DNA of 64,000 nt from Candidatus Poribacteria bacterium (GTDB lineage: Bacteria; Poribacteria; WGA-4E; WGA-3G). A program made the position numbers and the translations under genes. Positions 6,164 to 21,802 of this stretch are shown one piece after another (within the stretch, counting starts at the first letter, position 1; the number at the start of each line of letters is the position of its first letter). The DNA lies in NCBI GenBank assembly GCA_022824265.1, contig JAJEAG010000024.1, forward strand, positions 27,521 through 91,520, in the 5' to 3' direction. Below the pieces are notes generated by a model that ran no database searches, was not told the DNA's origin, and was given only the letters and a program-made list of their open reading frames with translations.

Positions 6164-6550
6164 TTATTTTTCCGATTCGTCTAATTCTTGCATGAATGTT
6201 TCAACACTGGTAGTCTGGACTGCTTTACGATGCAGTTCTGTCAAACGATCAAGGTCCAGAATAGATTCAAGGGCATCCGACACAGGTTGTACATTGCTCA
6301 GCGGAAAACGCTCAGTGAGTACAGATAGAATATTGCTAATGGAATTTTCACGTGCACCTCGTTCATAGAATCGCTGTTCCAAGTGTTCTATAAAAGGAGA
6401 TTCTCGCATCATTTCCTCCGATATAAGTTTTTGTAAAAATGTAAGGTCATGGGCTAAACTACCTAACGTTGACATCGCAAACAAAAGTGTTCCACGCGTC
6501 TGTGTATCAACTGGTGCGGCAACCGTCTTCTCAACACATCTTTCTAACAA
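6164..6550 (-). CDS. DUF4351-like C-terminal fragment of an Rpn/YhgA-type PD-(D/E)XK nuclease-transposase-like protein, probably a remnant
   Basis: ILSVLTERFPLSNVQPVSDALESILDLDRLTELHRKAV resembles DUF4351 C-terminal regions. It uses a TTG start. An out-of-frame 44-codon ORF (6544..6678) overlaps its start, which suggests a frameshifted gene. Confidence 0.35.
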   Translation of the reverse strand: MLERCVEKTVAAPVDTQTRGTLLFAMSTLGSLAHDLTFLQKLISEEMMRESPFIEHLEQRFYERGARENSISNILSVLTERFPLSNVQPVSDALESILDLDRLTELHRKAVQTTSVETFMQELDESEK

Positions 6551-6801
6551 TATATGTGTTTATACCTATCGGAGTCAAGAGTCTCTAAAACTTCAACATC
6601 GGGTGTGTCAAAGGATAGCATGGCGAAGTCATCGGCGAACCGATCCATCAGATGCTTCACGATTTCATCATATTGTGCCATGCTAATTGTTATACCTTTT
6701 CCTACAGGTTTGTTTTATTGATTATACTTGAGGGGATGGGTGGATTGTCAAGGAGAGTTTTTGATGTGATGTTTTGGAAACTGTGGTAAAATAAGGATGT
6801 A

Positions 6802-8010
6802 TTAAGCATTGGTATTAACTCTTTCAACTGCATGCTCAAAAGTATTCTTATAGACTGTACTTTTCATTCTACTTCGAATGAAGGTCTCAAGTGATCTTAT
6901 GCCCTTTTTCATTTCTTCGCGAACTCGACTTGCTTCAAAGTTGAATGTATACAGATTATGGCATGCTCGACGATGAATGTGGTTATTTCCATCACGATCT
7001 TCAAGATAGTCTATGTACAAAAGGGCATCGTTCTCGTTGCTAATTGAAAAAACTTCCCCACCTTCAACATCCCAATCTTTTACTATAAAACCCTCATTGT
7101 TAATCAACTGAAGTAAATGCTGTGCAAAATCACGACGATTTTGCTGATATTTGACGGGGTTTTTCTCCTTTTCTCTTTTGGAGAATCGTGTCCAGTGAAA
7201 ACCAGGTAATTGAACGTTTTTGAATGCTGCACTAAGCATCCAACTCTGTGAATCAACCGTATCAGCTCCACTGTAAAAAGCAAATAGCATTAACAACGCA
7301 GATCCCATTGAAAAACAGTGTATATGTGAATTAGGAAGAAGTTCTCGAACCTTATGAATAATGTCAATGGCTGTCCGTTTATTCCCGTTAAGTGCAAGTG
7401 GAGCTAAACTCCCAATACCAATAATAGAAGGAGTATATCCATATATTTTGACTATATTATCCAGTCGGCGTTTGAGAGTGCTTGGATTGTGACCGTGAAT
7501 AACTGGCATTAGTTGAAATCCATTGGGAATATCTCCATTTAGTGAATCTAATCCTTCGAACATTTTACGAGTGTTTTTTAGTGTATTTTGCCAACGCTTG
7601 CTTCTTTCTCTCCCATCAGATTCTGGTAGGAAAGGATGATCAAGCACAACTGATATATTAACCTTAAACTCAATTCCAACTTTAAGTACGTCAACAGCAT
7701 CTATGCTAATTTTGTTCTGTTTCTGGAAATTAAAAGCACCAGAATCAAGCATCAGAGGTCCATTAAACTCTATATATTCATGGAGTTTTCCGGGTCTTTC
7801 ACGGATTTCCGGAGTAAATAGACGTGTTCGTTGGTTTGCTAATATATCAAATGCATTAACGAGAAGTGCTTGGGTACCAGTGATTTTCCACGGATGGAAA
7901 GCCAAACCTGCCCGCGGAAAATCACCTATGCGATAACTGGCAAAAAGATTGGGTGTTTCAAATGAGAAATTTTGAAGAATGGAAGGAATTGCTATATCTT
8001 GATCCATCAA
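6802..8010 (-). CDS. tRNA-guanine transglycosylase (TGT)-fold protein, DpdA-like. Last gene of the six-gene operon.
   Basis: PLMLDSGAFNF aligns with TGT DSGGFQ. VVLDHPF aligns with aFDEC. IGIGSLAPL / LPNSHIHCFSMGS / GADTVDS follow the TGT (beta/alpha)8 core order. No CxCxxC...H zinc site. Start overlaps the upstream ATPase by 4 nt. Confidence 0.5.
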   Translation of the reverse strand: MMDQDIAIPSILQNFSFETPNLFASYRIGDFPRAGLAFHPWKITGTQALLVNAFDILANQRTRLFTPEIRERPGKLHEYIEFNGPLMLDSGAFNFQKQNKISIDAVDVLKVGIEFKVNISVVLDHPFLPESDGRERSKRWQNTLKNTRKMFEGLDSLNGDIPNGFQLMPVIHGHNPSTLKRRLDNIVKIYGYTPSIIGIGSLAPLALNGNKRTAIDIIHKVRELLPNSHIHCFSMGSALLMLFAFYSGADTVDSQSWMLSAAFKNVQLPGFHWTRFSKREKEKNPVKYQQNRRDFAQHLLQLINNEGFIVKDWDVEGGEVFSISNENDALLYIDYLEDRDGNNHIHRRACHNLYTFNFEASRVREEMKKGIRSLETFIRSRMKSTVYKNTFEHAVERVNTNA

Positions 8011-9176
8011 TTTCCATCTTCCACTATCAGTTTCATTCGTTCACGCATTCTTTCTAAAAAAATTCCTGGTAAAACCTTAAATTCAACCTTTTCCATATCT
8101 TCTTTTAGTGAATTATATTCTATCTCAATATCATTCCTATCAAGTGGTTTTAAGTCAATTGTATTAGATCGATTTGGTATGTCTAACTTACGAACAATTT
8201 CAAAGTTGTCACGTCCATTTTCTAAGTAGTCGGACACATACTCAATTGCAAGTTCAATGTTGTCTATTGGTTGAAGTTCTAATGGTTTACCTAAACGTCT
8301 TTGAATAGCGGGATATTGTCCAAGATCACTAGGGTCAGGAACTGTGGCAACTACAAAAAAAACTAATTCATTTAATGTATCAAAACAATGTCGTAAATCC
8401 TGTGCATACTGTGATTGACGTGATCGAGTTAATCCTTCAAATATTTCCTCAAATTCATCAAACAGAAGTATTATACCATCACATAGGTTTGTTCTTTTTA
8501 AGACTACAAGTAATCCGTATAGGAAACGTATAGCAAGTGACGAACTCGTAATATCAATAGGTTGCTTTCCCAAATGAGTTAATAGTTTTTTGTCTGCTGC
8601 AAGGAGTTTATGTCCTTTTAGCCAACGAATAAACGCATCTTTTTTTCGTTCTTGAAAGGTAGTAAACAATTCAGTTTGGATAATTGCTTTGATTATTTCC
8701 AATAATTCACTTGCAGTATTTTCCTCTTCTGAAAGTTTATCTATTTGAGTTTTGTCTGATTTTAAAGTTGTAATAAGATTATTCATAAAAGATTCTGTCA
8801 GTTTATCAACAATCTTTGCATGTATATTTAGATACGCTTCACCTGGATCTGAGATATAAATTGGATAAAGATTACCAATTTGCTTACTACGTCTTGCTTC
8901 GTCGGTCAATTTTTCAAAGTAACGTAAGATATTTGTCTTACCAGCATTGTGTTTACCGTTTATGCACAACCTTTTTGCGTCTGATGTAAAATTATTTATT
9001 ATATAAAAAAAGGTTTGTTTAATTTCTTCTTGGTCACTACAAACTTCAAAACGCGTTTCGCCAGGTCCAGGAAATGGATTTTTAAGTAGATTATATTTTT
9101 CATATGGACTGGAGATTTGTGGTTTGTTACCAATTTTAATCAGGTCTTTTTTCCATGTCATTGTTATTTCTCCCAA
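8007..9176 (-). CDS. P-loop AAA+ ATPase (AAA_16 / Cdc6-like type)
   Basis: Walker A INGKHNAGKTNILRYF and Walker B IILLFDEFEE. The N-terminal NPFPGPGETRF resembles the Cdc6/AAA_16 lead-in. Translationally coupled to the flanking genes. Confidence 0.6.
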   Translation of the reverse strand: MGEITMTWKKDLIKIGNKPQISSPYEKYNLLKNPFPGPGETRFEVCSDQEEIKQTFFYIINNFTSDAKRLCINGKHNAGKTNILRYFEKLTDEARRSKQIGNLYPIYISDPGEAYLNIHAKIVDKLTESFMNNLITTLKSDKTQIDKLSEEENTASELLEIIKAIIQTELFTTFQERKKDAFIRWLKGHKLLAADKKLLTHLGKQPIDITSSSLAIRFLYGLLVVLKRTNLCDGIILLFDEFEEIFEGLTRSRQSQYAQDLRHCFDTLNELVFFVVATVPDPSDLGQYPAIQRRLGKPLELQPIDNIELAIEYVSDYLENGRDNFEIVRKLDIPNRSNTIDLKPLDRNDIEIEYNSLKEDMEKVEFKVLPGIFLERMRERMKLIVEDGN

Positions 9177-10105
9177 CGAATTAGTTTGATCAATTTACCA
9201 TTCACATGCAATCCATCCTCCAGATAACGATAGTCAAGCCATAATGATCCTTTTCGCATAATATTCCTAACTTTTTTGGTTTCCTCAATATTCAGTAATT
9301 TTGCAATTAGACGTTCGCTAAGTATTTCATTCCTTGGTCGAATTGAAATGATTTGGTAATTCCCTGAAATTTCACTGCGGATCGTTGCAGGAGCAAGTGT
9401 TATTTTTCCGGGAAAATTTTTTACAAATAGGTTCATTTTCATCTCAAAAGCCTGAAAAGAAATCCGCAATTTCCGACATACGAGATGTGCTAACTGTCCA
9501 AGGTTTGCATACCCAGACGTTTTTTCACACTGGTTGTAACTTTCCCAACAAGCTGTTCTGAAAAGTTTTAACGACGGTTGTTTTTCATCCCATTCTCCTC
9601 CCCAATAGATGACTCCTTCAAAAGGAGAACGGTATGCATGTCCTACTGATACCGACCATGCCTGAAATGTATCAAAAGCGACGAAGGTAATGTTATAATT
9701 TTGTTTTATCTTAAGTCCCAAATCTCTTCGAGATGCTTTATCATTGCGTTGCGGAATTTTGATTTCGCCTTCATTTTTTAGGCATTCAAGGAAATCTGCG
9801 TAAGGGGGATAATTTCTCAATCCTTGATTCATCGGCAGCAAATGATTTCCAGAATTCCAAGCACCAATAAAATTATCATAATTTTCAGTCAGGCACAATA
9901 CATTATGATCTTGTTTACACTGAGTTAACCATTTGGATTCACTAAAGATACGTAGAATATCTTTCACCCTACGATCAAGACGTTTTATTTTACCTTGACT
10001 ATCTACAATTTCATATAGTATATCCAGTGAGAGTTTATTATCATCACGGTGTGTCTCAATGGAATCAGCAATGGAAAGTAATTTATTCATGGTAATTGGG
10101 TCCAC
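9164..10105 (-). CDS. Hypothetical protein, 313 aa, operon member
   Basis: Long ORF in an operon with overlapping start and stop codons. No recognisable motif. Confidence 0.5.
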   Translation of the reverse strand: MDPITMNKLLSIADSIETHRDDNKLSLDILYEIVDSQGKIKRLDRRVKDILRIFSESKWLTQCKQDHNVLCLTENYDNFIGAWNSGNHLLPMNQGLRNYPPYADFLECLKNEGEIKIPQRNDKASRRDLGLKIKQNYNITFVAFDTFQAWSVSVGHAYRSPFEGVIYWGGEWDEKQPSLKLFRTACWESYNQCEKTSGYANLGQLAHLVCRKLRISFQAFEMKMNLFVKNFPGKITLAPATIRSEISGNYQIISIRPRNEILSERLIAKLLNIEETKKVRNIMRKGSLWLDYRYLEDGLHVNGKLIKLIRWEK

Positions 10106-10108
10106 TTA

Positions 10109-11185
10109 TCATTCCTCCTGGATTTCCATGACATCACGAGCAAAGAATCCACCGCGTGCCTGTGAGTAATAAACAAGTTTGTATGTGCGAGATAATTTTT
10201 CGTTCACTAAACGAATAGTACTGAACACCTGCGCCAAATCCCAAAGTAAATAATGTACAGGGGTTAGTAACCACCTTTTATTGTAGGAATCGTATCGTAC
10301 CGAACTCATCTCCTTACGCATAGAGGGAACACTGATGTGGAGACTGTCTTGGTTTTCTAAGGTTGCCAGAGAAGCCATATCTTTATCTCCTGTGAGCAAG
10401 TAGACTCCTTTTTGTATTCCTCGACTCTGCTTGAAATCTTTCAAACTTTCAATAATCAGGCGGTCATTCTTTGAATCAATTTTGATCTGATCTAAATGTT
10501 GAGGAATACTCCTTAGGATTTCTACAGGTCTCCATAGACGAATGTGACTCAATTCCCTACTAATACATGAAACTTGTGGACGCTTTTCCAAAACACGGTA
10601 TTTAGCGATGTTTGGGTTAGTGCCTCTTCCGCTTTTTTTCCAGATTTCATTCATCTCATATACTTGTTGTTGTATTTCAGTCATCACGAAAACCGGAACA
10701 ACCGTCCATATTGGCACAGTACGTAGTGTCATATGCAAAAAAGAAGAAATTGCTCTCCGTAAGGCACCGGTGTCCACGACGAATGTTAAATATCCATGTT
10801 TTGAAAGTTGTCTCATTACCTCAAGGAATTCTAATTCAATAGTTTGTTCTTCCATTAAGCAAAACTTTGGACATAGAAGTCCTGTTCGTAGCATACTGTC
10901 CGCGAGTTGATCCCAAATAAGTTTTCTTGCTTGATCTGCTATATTTTCTTTGGAGGATAATTCAGAAAAACGAGATTTAATATCTTGATTAGCTACAGGT
11001 GCAAAAGTAAAAGGTAGAATTGGATATTCTCGTGCTGTTTTATCGGATTCATCAATTGTAATATAAGCCAACTTAATATAATTACAATTTTCAAGATGAG
11101 TCCCGTCTGTATAAGATACCTCCCATTTTCCCCAAAAAGGATATTCGGCTATAAACTCATCAAGTTTTAGTAGTCGTTTACCCAT
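10109..11185 (-). CDS. Hypothetical protein with a putative PIN-like nuclease domain
   Basis: Spacing of acidic residues matches a PIN core: LTFVVDTGALRR, VPVFVMTEIQQ, NDRLIIESL, VYLLTGDKDM. The N-terminal ~130 aa is unknown. Confidence 0.4.
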   Translation of the reverse strand: MGKRLLKLDEFIAEYPFWGKWEVSYTDGTHLENCNYIKLAYITIDESDKTAREYPILPFTFAPVANQDIKSRFSELSSKENIADQARKLIWDQLADSMLRTGLLCPKFCLMEEQTIELEFLEVMRQLSKHGYLTFVVDTGALRRAISSFLHMTLRTVPIWTVVPVFVMTEIQQQVYEMNEIWKKSGRGTNPNIAKYRVLEKRPQVSCISRELSHIRLWRPVEILRSIPQHLDQIKIDSKNDRLIIESLKDFKQSRGIQKGVYLLTGDKDMASLATLENQDSLHISVPSMRKEMSSVRYDSYNKRWLLTPVHYLLWDLAQVFSTIRLVNEKLSRTYKLVYYSQARGGFFARDVMEIQEE

Positions 11186-11591
11186 CAGAAATTCTCACTT
11201 TGTAGTCAGTACGCTGGTGGTGGTTCTGCAAGATTTCCTGTACAACAGCGGTTAAAATTGTGCTTGATTTCAACGCTGGCCTGGAAATTTTGTCTTCAAA
11301 TTCCTCACTAGATACTTCCATATCTGTTTGTATATCTTTAAATACAGAAAATACCTGCTTTTTTAACGGATCGGGTAAATAGAAATCTACTTCTTCAGGA
11401 TTTGAAAATGTAGGCATTTTAGTTTCAGGGTCTTTTGAATCCAAATTCACGACCTTATCTAAGAGAGAATCCAAATGAATTATTATTTCATTTTCATTTC
11501 TCCATTGTTGAAAGTCAAGAATAGAAAGATCTGGTACAGAATAAATCTCAACTACTTCTTGTGTTGAGGGATTAATAATTTCTAATTTCAT
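11178..11591 (-). CDS. Hypothetical protein, 137 aa, operon member
   Basis: ORF overlaps the downstream gene start by 8 nt. No motif recognised. Confidence 0.45.
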   Translation of the reverse strand: MKLEIINPSTQEVVEIYSVPDLSILDFQQWRNENEIIIHLDSLLDKVVNLDSKDPETKMPTFSNPEEVDFYLPDPLKKQVFSVFKDIQTDMEVSSEEFEDKISRPALKSSTILTAVVQEILQNHHQRTDYKVRISDG

Positions 11592-11622
11592 CTATGTTCC
11601 ATTTTGCAAAAGTGTGTGAATC

Positions 11623-12066
11623 CTATTCCCATAACCATTTTTTTAACTGAGTCTGTCTTTTGCCTATCACTCCGTGTGTAAAAACGGACCTTGTAGGCAT
11701 TGGAATCTTATGTTTCAAATCCTCAAATGCCTTCTGGTAGGTCCTTCCAAGTACAAAGCAAATTGAAGCATGATTTTTTCGAAGAATGTCTGAAAAAGTT
11801 GTTTTGATTTGAGGCTGCAACTCAACTACCCGTGAGAAGTTCATCTTTTGATCATAGAATTCAGTTTGAAAATCTGCTGGAATAAGTCCATAATATGCAG
11901 ATAAGATGTAAACATCCAACCATTCTGCCTTGAGCGGACATTCACGAAGAAAACGTCGTAAAACAAAAAATAGTGGACCGTTATATCTTTCAATTGCCGG
12001 CAACTGTTCTTGTGAAGTGTTTTTGCGTTGTGAACAAGATAAAATCAGCAAACGTTGACTGTTCAT
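11623..12066 (-). CDS. Small hypothetical protein with a YaaA/DUF328-like N-terminal motif, first gene of the operon
   Basis: LLILSCSQRKN...PAIERYNGPLFFVL is reminiscent of the YaaA N-terminus (MLILISPAKTL...RY). It is much shorter (147 aa), so similarity is tentative. Confidence 0.4.
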   Translation of the reverse strand: MNSQRLLILSCSQRKNTSQEQLPAIERYNGPLFFVLRRFLRECPLKAEWLDVYILSAYYGLIPADFQTEFYDQKMNFSRVVELQPQIKTTFSDILRKNHASICFVLGRTYQKAFEDLKHKIPMPTRSVFTHGVIGKRQTQLKKWLWE

Positions 12067-12339
12067 AATATCTCTATTGCAAATGCAGAATCATGTTAGA
12101 TATATATACCGTAAGTACCGTAAGTGTATATATTGTAAACTACACACATTATTTTTTCAAGTAGAAAATATGTCTATAAGGTAAAATGATAGAAATAAGG
12201 ATGGGATTCACTTAACTGATCACAATTCACGGTATTCTCCTTTAAACACTTTTCTGACATGCCAACCGATAATTTCTTCCTCTGGATAATAGGATCGTCT
12301 TTGCGGTAAAGTAATTCTTATACCATAAAAATCCATAAG

Positions 12340-13006
12340 TCATTCCTGAAATCCTGTTGTCCCGTGTGCATCATCGGAAGCCAAAATTATTCTCTTTTTA
12401 GATAATGTGAATGTACCACGGTCAAACAGTTTTTGATGTGAACTGTGAGTCAGCCTATTACCATCTGCTATGACATACATTTAGAACGATAATGTATCTC
12501 ATATTATCTTAAGAATGTAATTCAATTCCTACTGCATGTATAACTTCTTTATATTTCGATTCATGAAACGTTCTTTCCAACATCATTTGAGTGACCTCAA
12601 TATGTAAAGTAGGATCACTGAGGAATTGTTCTATAATCGCTTCATGAAAACCACCAGATACATTGTTATCATGAAGTTCTCTTGGTTTTACATTACCCGA
12701 TACATCCTCTTCAATACTGTCAGCATTTGTCACAAACCATACACAGTATTTCTTTAAACGCCAAAATGGATCATGAGTTCCTTTATTTGTTTTTCTGGGA
12801 CCAAACTTTTTTAACAATTTACCAAACGATTCCTCAATTTCTGCGTATGTATGTATTCGTTGTTCATTATTTATTAATTTCCCGATTGCATACAAAACCA
12901 ATAATGGCCTATGAGGTGAAATTACCCCATTACGTTTAAATGGTTTAATTCTATCAAACAATTCAATTATTGTATCTCTGTCCATTTGCATCAGTAACCT
13001 CCCCAA
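12340..13006 (-). pseudogene. Disrupted restriction-type HNH endonuclease
   Basis: ORF 12509..13006 encodes only the N-terminal domain (SPHRPLLVLYAIGKLIN) typical of McrA-like HNH restriction enzymes. Downstream, out of frame (12480..12340), is ...NRLTHSSHQKLFDRGTFTL, matching the HNH C-terminal H..FDRG motif. The intervening catalytic His segment is missing. Confidence 0.5.
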
Positions 13007-13008
13007 AA

Positions 13009-13431
13009 TTACTTATGACATATCAAACAAGGATCTTCATCATCCTCATCATCGTGTACATCGGTAAGGATTTCTATGAGTCGCCGATTTGGTTTTTCCT
13101 TTTTCTTAGAAGTCTTTGCCTTTTCAGTATTTTCCTTAATTTGTTTAATCCGTTTAGGATCTGCAAGTTCCTCCAAACTTTCACCCTGACTCCACGTGAA
13201 CCGTTCGCCTGTCTCACCTTTAGCAAGTTCAAAAAGGTCTGGATGTTGCTCCAAGAGTCCCACCCATTCAGATTTGCGTTGGAAAAAGCAGAAGTAGCAG
13301 CCGGAACGTGTGCGCCACTTGTAATAGTCGGGCAAACCGAGTCCACTTTCCTCAAGGATTTGGAAAACGTCATCTGCTGAACTATCTTTACCACCAGATA
13401 GACCGAGAAGATGTCGTATTTTTTCTGCCAA
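13009..13431 (-). CDS. Truncated PP-loop ATP pyrophosphatase (PAPS-reductase/DndC/QueC-like), probable remnant
   Basis: SGGKDS PP-loop at residues 12-17, followed within 25 aa by a Cys cluster (WRTRSGCYFCFF) that normally lies ~150 aa further on. Acidic C-terminal tail ends in CLICHK. 140 aa total. Confidence 0.45.
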   Translation of the reverse strand: MAEKIRHLLGLSGGKDSSADDVFQILEESGLGLPDYYKWRTRSGCYFCFFQRKSEWVGLLEQHPDLFELAKGETGERFTWSQGESLEELADPKRIKQIKENTEKAKTSKKKEKPNRRLIEILTDVHDDEDDEDPCLICHK

Positions 13432-13448: not shown

Positions 13449-13709
13449 TTAATGTAAAACTGCGTTGTTTTCTTTTGTGACGCGAATTAGAAGTCGTAAA
13501 GCTTCGTTTACAGATGCAGCATCTGGAAACACTTCAGCAACGTCGGGTTCTAATTGGATAACAAGTTTACCACCAAAGGATTTACGTCCGGGACCTACCT
13601 TCCGCAATCGTAACTTTTTCAAGTCATATTCGGGCAAAAGATCGTCTTGCATCTTTGCTTTATCCTTCTTCATAATCTTTCCTTTCCTGCGGAGTTGCTT
13701 TTCTTGCAC
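13449..13709 (-). CDS. brnA: BrnA-family antitoxin (ribbon-helix-helix)
   Basis: DDLLPEYDL...KVGPGRK...VIQLEPDVAEVFPDAASVNEALRLLI matches the BrnA antitoxin pattern. It overlaps the brnT stop. The true start is probably an internal Met (13673 or 13652). Confidence 0.65.
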   Translation of the reverse strand: MQEKQLRRKGKIMKKDKAKMQDDLLPEYDLKKLRLRKVGPGRKSFGGKLVIQLEPDVAEVFPDAASVNEALRLLIRVTKENNAVLH

Positions 13710-13932
13710 TAATCAAACGAGTCTTATTACCTCTTTCAGAATATGCTACCATTAATACTCGATTTTGTGCTGATAGTCCGATGATAAGATACCTTTCCTC
13801 CTCAATAGAGTGATTTGGATCATCAAACACAACAAAAAGAGGATCTTCAAATACCGTTTTTGCTTCATTAAATGACACACCATGTTTTGATTGGTTCGCA
13901 GCATCTTTATTTGTATTCCATTCAAAATCCAT
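13660..13932 (-). CDS. brnT: BrnT-family toxin (DUF497 ribonuclease)
   Basis: MDFEWNTNKDAANQSKHGVSFNEAKTVFEDP is the canonical BrnT N-terminus. Confidence 0.75.
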   Translation of the reverse strand: MDFEWNTNKDAANQSKHGVSFNEAKTVFEDPLFVVFDDPNHSIEEERYLIIGLSAQNRVLMVAYSERGNKTRLISARKATPQERKDYEEG

Positions 13933-16360: not shown

Positions 16361-17200
16361 ATGATAGTTGAAGAACCCAAAGAAAAATATGACCAATTGA
16401 TAACTGATGGTTATTGTGTAATAGAGAATGTGCTAAAGGAAGATATGCTTTCCAGTTTGCGGAAAGTTACTGACGAACTACTGGATGCACAAACTGACGA
16501 ACAAAAAGATGCCTACCGTTCATCTGGAAGTATGATTAGCGTCTACACACATTCTTTGTTCTCAGAATTAGTTGTCTACCCGCGTGCATTACAGTCTCTT
16601 GACGCTTTAGGATTCCTGCGTCCAAAATGGTCGTCAGGATATGTGATAAGTAAACCTCCACAGAGTCCACCCTTATTTTGGCATCAGGACTGGTGGGGTT
16701 GGGATGACCCATGCAGCTATACGGCATTGCCTCAACAACTTTTTCTAATGTATTATTTGGTAGACACTATTCCGTATAACGGGTGTCTTCGGGTTATCAA
16801 AGGGTCACATCTTAATAGACATCCACTCCATGATTCATTACCCAGTGCACATGCAGCCGAACTACAAAAAGTCGAAAATGAGGAACATCCAGCATTTCAA
16901 CAGTATCCCGATGAGATAGATATCCCAGTGAAGTCAGGTGATTTAGTAATCGGTGATTCACGACTACTCCACGCATCACACGGTAATCAATCAGATGAAC
17001 GGCGGACAGTAATTACCCTTTGGTATCACCCATATTTTGCTCTTTTACCAGAAACTATGCAAGCACATATCGGTAGACTTAGACAGAGTGATACTTGGTC
17101 TGATGCGGATTGGAAACGAATTGAAGAACTCACACCGATTTATGAAGGTAAAGTTGAACCAATGAATTGGAATCGAACACCAGGTCCTGAACTGAAATAG
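16361..17200 (+). CDS. Phytanoyl-CoA dioxygenase (PhyH) family Fe(II)/2-oxoglutarate oxygenase
   Basis: WHQDWW (H-x-D), VIKGSHL and LLHASHGN motifs. Confidence 0.65.
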   Translation: MIVEEPKEKYDQLITDGYCVIENVLKEDMLSSLRKVTDELLDAQTDEQKDAYRSSGSMISVYTHSLFSELVVYPRALQSLDALGFLRPKWSSGYVISKPPQSPPLFWHQDWWGWDDPCSYTALPQQLFLMYYLVDTIPYNGCLRVIKGSHLNRHPLHDSLPSAHAAELQKVENEEHPAFQQYPDEIDIPVKSGDLVIGDSRLLHASHGNQSDERRTVITLWYHPYFALLPETMQAHIGRLRQSDTWSDADWKRIEELTPIYEGKVEPMNWNRTPGPELK

Positions 17201-17295
17201 TAAAGAATCTCTACAGTTGATTATTAGTCTAAGTTGACTATAAAACTATTTTATTTCTAAATAGACATACAAATCTAATGGATAGGAGTCATGTA

Positions 17296-18054
17296 ATGCA
17301 ACATCGTCCTATTTTTCATGATTTTACTTTCGGTGATAAAGAACGGAAACAATTGGATTTAGATGGTCATTATGTGCTGCCCGGACTATTAACGTCGGAT
17401 GCTCAGGAACGATTGACCAAATCATTAGCAAAAGTCCAATCGCTTATTCCTGGTTGCAAAGAGGGACATGAACCCAACCGATTTTCTGCAGAATATGATT
17501 CCTATCTTGAAAGTCTCATTGCCCACCCACAAATGCTTAAACTCGCTCGTGAAGCACTTGGTGAAGATATTCGGTATGATCACTGTGTGAGTCTTAACCG
17601 TCATGGAGGTAATGGAGGCATTGGATGGCATAGCCATGGATACTCAGACGATGATCCGCGCTACGGTTTCCTCCGTATCTTCTTCTATGTCAATGGATTT
17701 GAGGTAGATGATGGTGGATTAAAGGCAGTTCCCGGTAGTCATCTTTACCGAGATGGAAGAATTCACGGTGGAACAGATGATATCCTGAGGGATGGATGGT
17801 TGGCGGGTAAAACCCATCCTGAGACTGGTGAACAGTTACAGATTCAGACCTTGTCGGTGCCAGAAGGAACCGTAATATTAATGTGGACTCATGCAGCACA
17901 TGCTGTATCTCCAAGAAAACCAGACAGCGAAACACGATGGACCGTCGTTTACGCCTATCGTAATCCTGGTAAACCATCTGGCGCACGTTGGATTTCACCC
18001 GAATTTGAACAAAAACCGATTCCCGGTGCAGAAGGTTTAATGTCACTTTATTGA
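17296..18054 (+). CDS. PhyH-family dioxygenase, tandem paralog 1
   Basis: GWHSHGY, VPGSHLYRD and HAAHAV motifs. AGGAG RBS 7 nt before the ATG at 17296. Confidence 0.65.
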   Translation: MQHRPIFHDFTFGDKERKQLDLDGHYVLPGLLTSDAQERLTKSLAKVQSLIPGCKEGHEPNRFSAEYDSYLESLIAHPQMLKLAREALGEDIRYDHCVSLNRHGGNGGIGWHSHGYSDDDPRYGFLRIFFYVNGFEVDDGGLKAVPGSHLYRDGRIHGGTDDILRDGWLAGKTHPETGEQLQIQTLSVPEGTVILMWTHAAHAVSPRKPDSETRWTVVYAYRNPGKPSGARWISPEFEQKPIPGAEGLMSLY

Positions 18055-18136
18055 GGTAATACCTACACGTAACTATTATGAGAATAATTACAAAATAACC
18101 TATGTGCCACTATAAAAAGAATAACATAGGAGATTT

Positions 18137-18895
18137 ATGGCACAGAACACAATCTTTCATAATTACACGTTCGGTGATCAAGAACGAAAACAATTAGATC
18201 ATGATGGTCATTATGTTCTACCAGAACTATTGACGAATGATGCTCGCGAACGATTGACTGAATCCTTAGCACGTATTGAATCACTTATTCCTGGTGGTAA
18301 AAAAGGCTATGAACCCAATCGTTTTGCAGCGGAGTACGACAGTTACCTTGAAAGTCTGATACCACATCCGCAAATGCTAAAACTTGCACGTGAAGTTCTT
18401 GGTGATGATATAAGATATGACCATTGTGTTAGTCTTAATCGTCCAGGTGGCAATGGAGGTATAGGATGGCATAGTCATAGTTATTCTGAAGATGATTCAC
18501 GATACGGTCTTGTCCGAATTTTCTTCTACGTCAACGGTTTTGATAAAGATGATGGCGGATTGAAGGCAGTACCTGGCAGTCACCTTTACCGAGACCCTAA
18601 AATACACGGAGCAACCGATAAGGCATTACGTGAAGGATGGTTAGCAGGTAAAACCCATCTTGATACAGGTGATCCATTAGAAATTCAGGAATTATCAGTA
18701 CCACCAGGAACAGTCGTTTTGATGTGGACACATGCAGCACATGCTGTAACACCGAGAAAACCAGATAGTGACACCAGATGGACTATAGTGTATGCATATT
18801 ATAAACCCGGTAAAGACCCTGGTGCCCGTTGGATTACACCTGAGTTTGAAAACAAACACATCCCAGGGGCAGAAGGATTGATGTCTCCTTATTAA
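18137..18895 (+). CDS. PhyH-family dioxygenase, tandem paralog 2, ~80% identical to the previous gene
   Basis: Near-colinear sequence with 17296..18054 (…FGDQERKQLDHDGHYVLPELL…GWHSHSY…VPGSHLYRD…). Confidence 0.65.
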   Translation: MAQNTIFHNYTFGDQERKQLDHDGHYVLPELLTNDARERLTESLARIESLIPGGKKGYEPNRFAAEYDSYLESLIPHPQMLKLAREVLGDDIRYDHCVSLNRPGGNGGIGWHSHSYSEDDSRYGLVRIFFYVNGFDKDDGGLKAVPGSHLYRDPKIHGATDKALREGWLAGKTHLDTGDPLEIQELSVPPGTVVLMWTHAAHAVTPRKPDSDTRWTIVYAYYKPGKDPGARWITPEFENKHIPGAEGLMSPY

Positions 18896-20356: not shown

Positions 20357-21802
20357 TTATTCGACTATAGATTCTTCGTTAAATAAATCCTTGAGGTCTA
20401 TAAGTAGAATATCATCTTCAGCTGCTCTATATTTTAAGGATTCTGTAAAGCCACTTGCAGAAAACAGAATATATCTCGGATCCTGCTGCCATTGAGTTGG
20501 TACTCTTTTTGACCTTTCAATCAGACGTGCCAATACATTTTCTCCAACTGGTTGATTCCACCATTTACATTCTCCAAATGTATGACTACCATCTAAGTTC
20601 TCTGTCATTATGTCAATTTCAATATCTGATTCCCAATGTCTACCCACAAGTATTGGAGGACTCATTAACTTTTCCTTCCCGAACAGACTAACATACTGTA
20701 TACATACATCTTCAAAGATTTCTCCCATATACTGTGATAAGTTCGGCTCAATCATTTGTTTATATACCAAATCTGAATTCTCTGATTCTATTAGACTCCT
20801 ATTCGGTAATACAAAGCGAAACCAGAATTTTATATAGTTTTCTGCTATTTTGTATATACCTTTTTTGCTTTTTAGTGGTGCTCGTTCCGTCACTGGAGTT
20901 TCTCGTTCTACCAATCCTAATTCCCTGAGAACACTTAGGTATTTATTTACACTTGTTGTACTAAGTCCAACTCTTTGTGATATTTCATTTAATCGCGTCA
21001 TACCACCAGCAACTGCTTGTAATATACTGGCATAAGTTCTGGGTTCTCTTAGTTCGGTTCGTAACAGAAAATTTACTTCATCAAATAAATATCCCTGAGG
21101 TGTGAGTAACTCATTTATGATACTTCGTTCAATATTTTTATGATATGTTTCTTTCAAATTTTGGGAAAAGTCTATTGTAAAACGATTCAGATAGGATGGT
21201 ATTCCACCAAGCATTCCATATACAAGCAATTTCTCTTTGTTTGTATAGTCAGGAAAGAACTTAGCACTATCTCTATAGGATAATGCTGTTAACTTTTTTT
21301 GGCTTGTCCTTCTCCCAAATAATGGTGATTTTTCAGCCAGCACTTCACCTTCCATAAAACTAACATGCGATCCACATAATATAAGGAAGATTCTACTGTT
21401 TTTCCCATGTAAGTCCCAAAACCGTTGTATAAGAGATGGTAGTGCAGGGTTGTCTTCACAGAGATATTGAAATTCATCAAGAACTACAACTAACCGCTCT
21501 TCTTGAGCCTTTTGTGCAAAATAGATTAATGCAGATTCCCAATCTCTAAATGTCATATTCTTTAGTAAAGGATCATCAATGACATGCTGTGCAACTTCCA
21601 TTACCTGATTTAGGTGATCACTTTCTTTCAACTGACTTGCCAGAAAGTAGATACTCCGTTTGTCCTTACAAAACTGCAACAGTAACTCAGTTTTTCCTAT
21701 TCTCCGTCTTCCATATAACACAAACAATTCTGGACTCTGTGTTTGATACATTTTTTCTAAATGATTTAATTCTTGTTCTCTGTTAATGAACACAGATTTC
21801 AC
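20357..21802 (-). CDS. AAA-family ATPase with a C-terminal DUF234 domain (Arch_ATPase type)
   Basis: Walker A YGRRRIGKTELL and Walker B VVVLDEFQYL. Length ~480 aa, typical of the ATPase+DUF234 family. Confidence 0.6.
   Translation of the reverse strand: MKSVFINREQELNHLEKMYQTQSPELFVLYGRRRIGKTELLLQFCKDKRSIYFLASQLKESDHLNQVMEVAQHVIDDPLLKNMTFRDWESALIYFAQKAQEERLVVVLDEFQYLCEDNPALPSLIQRFWDLHGKNSRIFLILCGSHVSFMEGEVLAEKSPLFGRRTSQKKLTALSYRDSAKFFPDYTNKEKLLVYGMLGGIPSYLNRFTIDFSQNLKETYHKNIERSIINELLTPQGYLFDEVNFLLRTELREPRTYASILQAVAGGMTRLNEISQRVGLSTTSVNKYLSVLRELGLVERETPVTERAPLKSKKGIYKIAENYIKFWFRFVLPNRSLIESENSDLVYKQMIEPNLSQYMGEIFEDVCIQYVSLFGKEKLMSPPILVGRHWESDIEIDIMTENLDGSHTFGECKWWNQPVGENVLARLIERSKRVPTQWQQDPRYILFSASGFTESLKYRAAEDDILLIDLKDLFNEESIVE

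Follow-up and report, generated by a model that had tools for sequence, protein, structure and literature searches.

What does an enzyme of the tRNA-guanine transglycosylase (TGT) fold do in a compact operon with an ATPase and a nuclease-like protein? This question is raised by six consecutive genes in DNA of a Candidatus Poribacteria bacterium (assembly GCA_022824265.1, contig JAJEAG010000024.1, positions 27,521 to 91,520 of the forward strand), a stretch of 64,000 nucleotides (nt) that we refer to as the window. To our knowledge, Dpd is the only cellular system that writes 7-deazaguanines into DNA, and how its transglycosylase, DpdA, reaches duplex DNA is still unclear. An earlier interpretation of the window, made from its letters (the sequence-only reading), had proposed an undescribed DNA-modification or defense operon around a DpdA-like TGT. 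Synteny, intact catalytic residues and an ATPase that is not of the DpdB type support this proposal. We conclude, with a probability of roughly 0.6, that the operon encodes an undescribed kind of modification-restriction system, one that resembles Dpd and works with 7-deazaguanine.

The open reading frame (ORF) list of the window contains six consecutive minus-strand ORFs between 6802 and 12066. In transcription order their junctions are a 31-nt gap, an 8-nt overlap, a 3-nt gap, a 13-nt overlap and a 4-nt overlap, the last of which, between genes 5 and 6, becomes 1 nt if the ATG start of the TGT database entry P0001 (401 amino acids, aa) is used. Recomputing the coordinates reproduced exactly the ORFs and junction sizes given in the sequence-only reading. 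The features are, in the order of transcription:

12067-12180, minus strand: upstream non-coding stretch, a possible operon promoter with two overlapping sigma-70-like sites
11623-12066, minus strand: gene 1, 147 aa, DUF6884, DpdC-like YaaA-fold protein
11178-11591, minus strand: gene 2, 137 aa, small acidic protein with an isoelectric point (pI) of 4.5 and no family match
10109-11185, minus strand: gene 3, 358 aa, PIN-domain nuclease with extra N- and C-terminal beta-rich domains
9164-10105, minus strand: gene 4, 313 aa, tandem winged-helix protein
8007-9176, minus strand: gene 5, 389 aa, AAA+ ATPase of the ORC/Cdc6-BrxD-TniB type
6802-8010, minus strand: gene 6, 402 aa, divergent TGT-superfamily base-exchange enzyme

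This six-gene arrangement goes far beyond chance. The lengths of all six ORFs match those of their homologues in other genomes, and thus all six are intact. The G+C content of the operon (0.32-0.38) equals or lies slightly under that of the rest of the window. The two sigma-70-like sites (12176-12148 and 12160-12132 on the minus strand, 10/12 matches each) are located 66-110 nt upstream of gene 1. Promoter and terminator scans gave no signal above shuffled controls, and because sigma-70-like sites are no commoner here than in shuffled sequence, the evidence for a promoter is weak.

The identity of the operon hinges on gene 6. Its product matches the Pfam TGT family PF01702 at 54.4 bits (cut-off 26.3), which bears out the TGT fold recognized earlier; the match ends at residue 265 of 402. 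D89, F93, the pair D124-H125 and D253 are invariant in an alignment of 25 sequences (A1), and in an alignment of 13 more diverse sequences (A5) D124, H125 and D253 are still invariant and D89 nearly so. D89, F93, D124 and D253 line up with the residues that serve as general acid/base, in stacking, in substrate binding and as nucleophile, respectively, in both ArcTGT and DpdA, for which the roles of the three catalytic aspartates and the residues essential in DpdA have been described (PMC10164549). The closest solved structure by sequence is ArcTGT (PDB 1iq8, 45.6 bits), with the TIM-barrel core aligned over residues 71-260 and the active site conserved; the solved DpdA structure was not recovered by the gene 6 profile search at E<=0.01. 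To judge from these residues, gene 6 is catalytically intact, and its product is predicted to replace guanine with a base of the 7-deazaguanine class.

The enzyme nonetheless falls outside every named TGT family that we compared it with. It reaches no curated NCBIfam cut-off, be it for Tgt (14.2 bits against 306.75), ArcTGT (68.6 against 350), general TGT (tgt_general, 41.1 against 47.6) or DpdA (NF041059, 28.1 against 200), and more distant matches of gene 6 likewise reach no cut-off of a named TGT family. On the PADLOC DpdA model it scores 22.7 bits, whereas a genuine cyanobacterial DpdA scores 430 bits on the same model.

Gene 1 provides a first connection to DNA. Described as YaaA-like in the sequence-only reading, its product can now be assigned more sharply to Pfam DUF6884 (37.1 bits, cut-off 30), with a weak YaaA match besides. 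The CxxxK (C11, K15) and LSAxxG (S56, A57, G60) motifs are kept without change in all of 17 diverse sequences; Pfam curators describe both motifs for DUF6884, whose members, in their model, flip a base out of the duplex (PMC11701544). DpdC, the enzyme that converts 2'-deoxy-7-cyano-7-deazaguanosine (dPreQ0) to dADG (2'-deoxy-7-amido-7-deazaguanosine) in DNA, is of the DUF328/YaaA type (PMC5699537, PMC12839542) and is reported to match Pfam DUF6884. By analogy with DpdC, the gene 1 product is predicted to take as its substrate the 7-deazaguanine base once this has been inserted into DNA. A solved-structure search with the DUF6884 profile gave a best E of 0.12, YaaA not being recovered by sequence, and DUF6884 matches on plasmids of Aulosira, Natrinema and Citrobacter stand in uninformative gene contexts. 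Gene 1 also matches PDC-M57A of PADLOC (37.8 bits), part of an uncharacterized candidate system; the other five proteins match no PDC-M57 component, and no paper mentioning PDC-M57 was found in the literature searched.

A natural fusion joins the two proteins. On an Allocoleopsis plasmid (NC_019762.1; locus L084, 753-2849) the annotated dpdA gene (698 aa, PADLOC DpdA 430 bits) is a DUF6884-TGT fusion, flanked by QueD and a DndB-type gene. The gene 6 family aligns with the TGT half of this genuine DpdA (hhalign, 96.7%), the DxGxF, DH and nucleophile-Asp motifs being common to both, and the gene 1 family aligns with the DUF6884 half (hhalign, 96.7%) with CxxxK and LSAxxG present in both. A Nostoc plasmid (L083, 7870-10014) carries a dpdA of similar size (714 aa, domains unscanned) and, between two DEAD helicases, a second, short TGT-like gene (315 aa).

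How widely is this gene set conserved? At 90% identity gene 6 has 412 homologue clusters, and database homologues number 221 for the PIN protein and 175 for the 313-aa gene 4 protein. In a library of 1.84 billion representatives, gene 6 finds only 566 clusters with E<=1e-3, of which 63 have E<=1e-30. Reference genomes yielded 29 loci when scanned, and metagenomes 46. The hosts are in their majority Candidatus Poribacteria, joined by Latescibacterota, Chloroflexi/Anaerolineae, Acidobacteria, Saccharibacteria, Oligoflexia and a metagenome-assembled genome of Thermoanaerobacteraceae. The full gene order of the window (DUF6884, small acidic, PIN, winged-helix, AAA+, TGT) recurs across at least four phyla. 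Relatives' cassettes are neighbored by methyltransferases, toxin-antitoxin genes, transposases and Ssp phosphorothioate genes, and the operon is mobile across phyla. No viral relatives of gene 6 were found in 50,697 phage records or in IMG/VR.

Partner modules and neighbors were counted over 56 related loci with at least 4.5 kb upstream of the TGT gene. DUF6884 occurs together with the TGT in 51 of them. Module I, the type of the window (small protein, PIN, winged-helix and AAA+), is found in 36/56. Module II, an unannotated protein of about 615 aa together with HerA (PADLOC HerA, 316 bits), is found in 16/56, and module III, a DEAD-DUF1998-PLD giant (PADLOC DruE 446 bits, DpdJ 128 bits) with a protein of about 430 aa, in 2/56 and on four shorter contigs; two of the 56 loci have modules I and II together. 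The sequence-only reading had been open to refutation by unrelated neighbors lacking synteny; the 36 loci that keep the gene order speak to the contrary. Reverse sampling gave the same picture, as all three independently chosen PIN homologues on long contigs sit in complete cassettes with a TGT.

When the two subtypes of module I are compared, the four middle proteins are 27-34% identical and the TGT and DUF6884 proteins 64-84%. The slow TGT-DUF6884 pair beside fast-evolving, swappable middle genes fits a conserved modification pair, the writer, combined with a partner module of readers and effectors. With less certainty, we infer that the four middle genes form one co-evolving module.

Module II loci comprise L027 (5981-9660), L047, L049, L054, L055, L059, L063-L073 and L081. 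The HerA partner of about 615 aa has no Pfam or PADLOC match, and the two proteins may constitute an uncharacterized HerA-based effector pair. Module III occurs in L029 (3263-9968), L031, L043, L060, L074 and L075; its giant is about 1800 aa long, with DUF1998 corresponding to the MrfA zinc-binding domain. A conserved C-terminal extension of about 100 aa distinguishes the DUF6884 proteins of Chloroflexi, Acidobacteria and Saccharibacteria from those of Poribacteria, including the window. Present in the DUF6884 genes at L023 5631-6407, L026 4255-5073, L027 4044-4793 and L028 5542-6306, this extension carries the motif YRxWYV...SPKWxVSxxTGxPVSxFxSxEARRVL and possibly serves DNA binding.

The supply of the precursor base gives a further line of evidence. 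A Vut_1/YhhQ transporter (177-184 bits) adjoins the TGT-DUF6884 pair in 15/56 loci and does so with all three module types. These YhhQ copies are 64-82% identical across phyla, and the transporter thus moves together with the two genes. In L027 their neighbor is QueC (211 bits), and a QueC homologue is present in two further loci, 3/56 altogether. YhhQ has been named as a transporter of 7-cyano-7-deazaguanine (preQ0) found in dpd islands. Three independent lines, namely the DpdC family tie, the natural fusion and the precursor supply, point to 7-deazaguanine, and it is likely that the system writes a base of this class into nucleic acid. In the Saccharibacteria locus L027 a gene of the nucleoside 2-deoxyribosyltransferase family (9663-11533) lies between HerA and the YhhQ/QueC pair, which might mean that the modified base is handled at the nucleoside level.

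Which nucleic acid is marked? The TGT could modify RNA, notably tRNA, the operon then being a housekeeping or stress unit for RNA modification or processing with the PIN protein as its RNase. The best named matches of gene 6 are indeed to tRNA enzymes (the NCBIfam ArcTGT model and PDB 1iq8), PIN domains are commonly RNases, and YhhQ and QueC serve tRNA queuosine synthesis too. However, gene 6 scores below every tRNA-TGT cut-off and has no PUA or C-terminal tRNA-binding domain in a Pfam scan and no CxCxxC zinc site. The family is small, with only about 566 clusters among the 1.84 billion representatives; it is patchily distributed across phyla, and its flanks are variable and rich in defense genes. 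The strict partners of the enzyme are a DNA-type AAA+ ATPase, a winged-helix array, HerA, or a helicase-PLD protein resembling DruE and DpdJ, and in the related locus L006 the cassette has decayed to ATPase fragments and the TGT. ArcTGT itself (1iq8) differs from the window enzyme in length (582 against 402 aa), in its C1, C2 and PUA tRNA-binding domains, in its CxCxxC motif and in having Gln169 where the window enzyme has His172, and the gene context in the window is defense-like rather than housekeeping. Sub-cut-off scores, missing domains and gene context rule out an ordinary tRNA Tgt or ArcTGT, and we regard an RNA-directed unit as very improbable. DNA is probably the target, a step taken with somewhat less assurance than the nature of the base.

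The middle genes are those in which modification and restriction would be divided. The sequence-only reading could place none of genes 1 to 4; DUF6884, PIN and tandem winged-helix assignments now cover genes 1, 3 and 4, and gene 2 is still unplaced. The latter has no Pfam, PADLOC or NCBIfam match but is kept at the same position in subtype A loci, and in subtype B this position is taken by a protein of about 118 aa that is just as acidic (pI 4.3). The two acidic proteins show weak, collinear similarity (hhalign E 0.0056), with a probability (6.5%) at which their homology is not established. Gene 2 is possibly an adaptor or regulator of the module. In gene 3, a PIN fold with conserved acidic residues is present, as its PIN-like residue spacing had led the sequence-only reading to suspect, and the protein is a candidate effector. 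The gene 4 model (predicted local distance difference test score 80.3) matches only winged-helix arrays or domains, those of MukF, the DpnI winged-helix domain, the FokI recognition domain and JetA, and on this model the protein is predicted to be a DNA-binding or scaffold subunit.

Gene 5 had been read as a P-loop ATPase of the Cdc6/ORC type, distinct from DpdB, and our searches agree. It matches Pfam BrxC_BrxD at 24.9 bits (cut-off 22.2) and TniB at 22.2 bits, with no DndB/DpdB match. Across 21 sequences Walker A (G74, G79-K80-T81), Walker B (D240-E241), R262 and R294 are invariant, and R293 is nearly so. A search of solved structures by sequence was uninformative (best E 0.19). BrxD models give 29.2 bits in PADLOC and 28.2 bits in NCBIfam; the latter, against a cut-off of 350, rules out BREX/BrxD membership, and neither the six operon proteins nor the three flanking ORFs scanned match any BREX family.

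The genes themselves, their conservation and linkages, the folds and the catalytic residues are observed; for the substrate base, the DNA target and the division of labor among the middle proteins, we infer the following mechanism. The TGT enzyme would exchange guanine in the cell's own DNA for a base of the queuosine pathway, most likely preQ0, by the double displacement of TGT and DpdA, in which D89 would be the general acid/base and D253 the nucleophile. Its DUF6884 partner would flip out and convert the inserted base, by DpdC analogy from nitrile to amide, with the invariant Cys11 as a possible nucleophile. The AAA+ ATPase and the tandem winged-helix protein would bind DNA, providing ATP-driven access (the role of DpdB) or sensing unmodified DNA; the PIN nuclease would act as effector against unmodified invading DNA, and the small acidic protein as adaptor or inhibitor. 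The odds that these roles within the middle module are correctly assigned are about even.

The same proteins could be turned outward. The TGT-DUF6884 pair would then act on invader DNA, removing phage 7-deazaguanines or excising or exchanging guanines, after which the PIN, winged-helix and AAA+ proteins would find and cut the DNA. Many phages are reported to carry 7-deazaguanines, by which they escape restriction (PMC6884629, PMC10516641). TGT chemistry is a reversible base exchange, DUF6884 is modelled as a base flipper and one member binds DNA lesions, and every alternative partner module has an NTPase; a nuclease domain is present in modules I and III, and none was recognized in HerA's partner. 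Against this stands the recurrent linkage to the YhhQ importer and QueC, which implies a supply of base and fits writing, not erasing. The TGT-DUF6884 pair is also slow-evolving, as expected of a self-marking enzyme and not of an invader sensor, and the closest characterized analogue, DpdA/DpdC, modifies self DNA. We consider action on invader DNA improbable and retain the self-marking system.

How does this system compare with those already described? The sequence-only reading matched the operon to none of them, and profile searches with Pfam, PADLOC and NCBIfam likewise assign the six proteins to no described system; no description of the gene set was found in PADLOC, NCBIfam or the literature searched, a scope that takes in few subscription journals. 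Dpd (DpdA/B/C plus DpdD-K in Salmonella Montevideo) shares with the window a TGT enzyme with three catalytic aspartates, a YaaA-fold partner of the DUF6884/DUF328 type, an obligatory ATPase in the cluster, an occasional linkage to preQ0 supply or YhhQ and an island-like, horizontally mobile distribution; module III even brings a helicase-PLD protein resembling DpdJ and DruE. It differs in its ATPase, which in the window is ORC/Cdc6-BrxD-like rather than the DndB/ParB-type DpdB, and in DpdD-K, in whose place the window has a PIN nuclease, a tandem winged-helix protein and a small acidic protein. None of the six operon proteins or three flanking ORFs has a PADLOC match to DpdD-K. The DUF6884 protein is also half the size of DpdC (147 against about 310 aa). 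Membership in Dpd proper is ruled out by the DpdA, DpdB and DpdD-K tests.

The predicted BREX-related capture (BRC) systems with TGT and GNAT (defined by PglZ, DUF6079, STAND NTPase, DUF4007, HerA and GNAT; PMC12839542) are alike in recruiting a TGT, proposed to mark DNA, to an ORC/Cdc6-type AAA+ ATPase and HerA without DpdB or DpdC, and the present family too pairs with HerA, in its module II loci. However, no BRC-defining family was detected in the window operon, and BRC has no DpdC homologue, whereas DUF6884 is nearly universal here. The phage enzymes DpdA1-4 are stand-alone DNA transglycosylases of the TGT family that are reported to work without DpdB (PMC10516641, PMC6884629); the window's family is instead cellular and coupled to nuclease and ATPase modules. 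We take the operon to represent a probable system for modification and restriction based on deazaguanine, in which both the writer clade and the partner modules are new.

Several observations weigh against this conclusion. By sequence, gene 6 is nearer to ArcTGT, a tRNA enzyme, than to DpdA, whose family it stands outside (28 bits against 200). The CxCxxC zinc motif, kept by DpdA and the TGTs, is absent from all 25 sequences of the gene 6 family (0/25), in which only the histidine ligand (H351) aligns. Gene 1 matches neither the PADLOC nor the NCBIfam DpdC model, and a distant DUF6884 member matches the DpdC model only weakly (17 bits). PIN domains are more often RNases than DNases. A DpdB homologue and a preQ0 gene or transporter are missing from the window and from the Poribacteria loci, so the link to the substrate rests on other phyla. 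A riboswitch search with Rfam, covering the window and five YhhQ-bearing loci, returned only a tRNA. The function proposed here, including the way in which the middle proteins would share modification and restriction, is as a whole a prediction.

On the missing supply genes, the sequence-only reading had already seen no queC/D/E or folE nearby. By tblastn the window contains no QueC or YhhQ homologue, and Pfam finds no queuosine-pathway domain in 20 ORFs at 16-62 kb, a test that covered ORFs of at least 200 aa, longer than QueD. The Dpd system of Salmonella is likewise without nearby preQ0 supply genes and uses the cell's queuosine pathway.

The genes beside the operon raise the question of whether it stands alone. 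A relative, L005 (TGT 81% identical), has the same chromosomal flanks, a PfkB kinase and a TPR protein, and carries intact SspD-like, sulfur-binding domain (SBD)-HNH and 293-aa Rpn-like genes around the cassette. The corresponding genes of the window, seen in the sequence-only reading as decayed PP-loop, HNH and Rpn genes, each turn out to have an internal deletion. At 12223-13431 lie the SspD-like PP-loop gene, with an in-frame deletion that leaves residues 1-23 and about 150-278 and loses about 24-149, and the SBD-HNH gene, which is without residues 160-224, a stretch between its SBD and its C-terminal part in which the HNH core would be expected. Compared with L005, the SBD part is 42% and the C-terminal part 77% identical, which suggests that the sulfur-binding domain was swapped. 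At 6170-6681 is the remnant of the 293-aa gene, keeping residues 1-39 and 163-292; the gene is intact in L001 and L005, and the intact copy has a hIEVQ-type motif fitting an Rpn/YhgA-like PD-(D/E)xK protein, with no Pfam match on record. What has decayed beside the operon is an Ssp-type phosphorothioate system that is intact in relatives. All six cassette genes are intact while the three flanking genes carry internal deletions, a contrast that we take as a probable sign of selection on the cassette.

Could the cassette then be non-autonomous, an accessory or restriction arm of a neighboring system, which would be Ssp in Poribacteria and a DUF1156 or N6/N4 methyltransferase elsewhere? SspD and/or SBD-HNH or DndB lie directly upstream in the same orientation in about a dozen loci; in L087 the order is SspB-SspC-SspD-GIY-YIG-DndB followed by the cassette, and in L085 and L086 a DUF499-HEPN / DUF433 / DUF1156-methylase set and a GIY-YIG gene after it end 19-26 nt before DUF6884. 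Most loci, however, have no Ssp gene (SspD in 6/56), and the neighboring system differs by lineage while the cassette is constant. In the window the Ssp genes are internally deleted and the cassette is intact, and in L046 and L042 the cassette occurs with only YhhQ upstream. Dependence on a neighbor is therefore unlikely, and we keep to a cassette that functions on its own as a modification-restriction system.

Two further genes recur beside the cassette. A DndB-family gene (412-506 aa) adjoins the cassette in L003, L012 (4159-5679), L025, L021 and L087, in Poribacteria and Latescibacterota. Its similarity to the cyanobacterial DpdB-type gene is marginal and covers only the DGQHR region (E 0.06); it could be part of the neighboring Ssp system or a DpdB-like partner. 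The other gene, found upstream of the cassette in L085 (6711-7085), L086 (6700-7074), L014 (5546-5920) and L003 (3846-4283), encodes a small GIY-YIG protein of 124-146 aa; in L003 it lies between the SspD and DndB genes.

Further out, a BrnT toxin (Pfam, 98 bits) overlaps a probable BrnA antitoxin ORF at 13449-13932; of the BrnTA pair claimed in the sequence-only reading the toxin is thus secure, and the antitoxin, having no Pfam match, is probable. Elsewhere the window consists of chromosome of the ordinary Poribacteria type. It includes, at 16361-18895 and 20357-21802, three tandem PhyH-family dioxygenase paralogues and a nearby ATPase_2/DUF234 winged-helix gene that are unrelated to the operon; PhyH paralogues are also present in the loci of relatives.

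Taken further, the window may hold the founding member of a modular family, so far undescribed, of defense systems that mark DNA with 7-deazaguanine, a view whose chances we judge evenly balanced. A writer pair composed of a non-DpdA TGT and a mini-DpdC, often with its own YhhQ importer, would plug into at least three unrelated effector modules. It would work without DpdB, an ORC/Cdc6-like ATPase and a winged-helix array choosing the site and opening the DNA, and its mark could differ from dPreQ0 and dADG. The family would reside mostly in uncultured phyla.

A writer assembled independently of Dpd, in which the TGT comes from another clade, the DpdC-like enzyme is minimal and an ORC-like ATPase stands in for DpdB, would reveal what in the chemistry is essential and what is interchangeable, and it bears on how TGT-fold enzymes are made to act on DNA. 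The compact six-gene system would be well suited to reconstitution. One writer pair with three effector modules would be a clean case of mix-and-match evolution in defense, with module III linking a Druantia-type helicase to a deazaguanine writer. Candidate readers of the deazaguanine mark would be the PIN/winged-helix/AAA+ set and the proteins that accompany HerA and the DruE-like protein, the latter companion being 430 aa long, and sequence-specific base-exchange enzymes are of interest for DNA labeling. For the organisms themselves, the finding would extend 7-deazaguanine modification to Poribacteria, Latescibacterota, Chloroflexi, Acidobacteria and Saccharibacteria.

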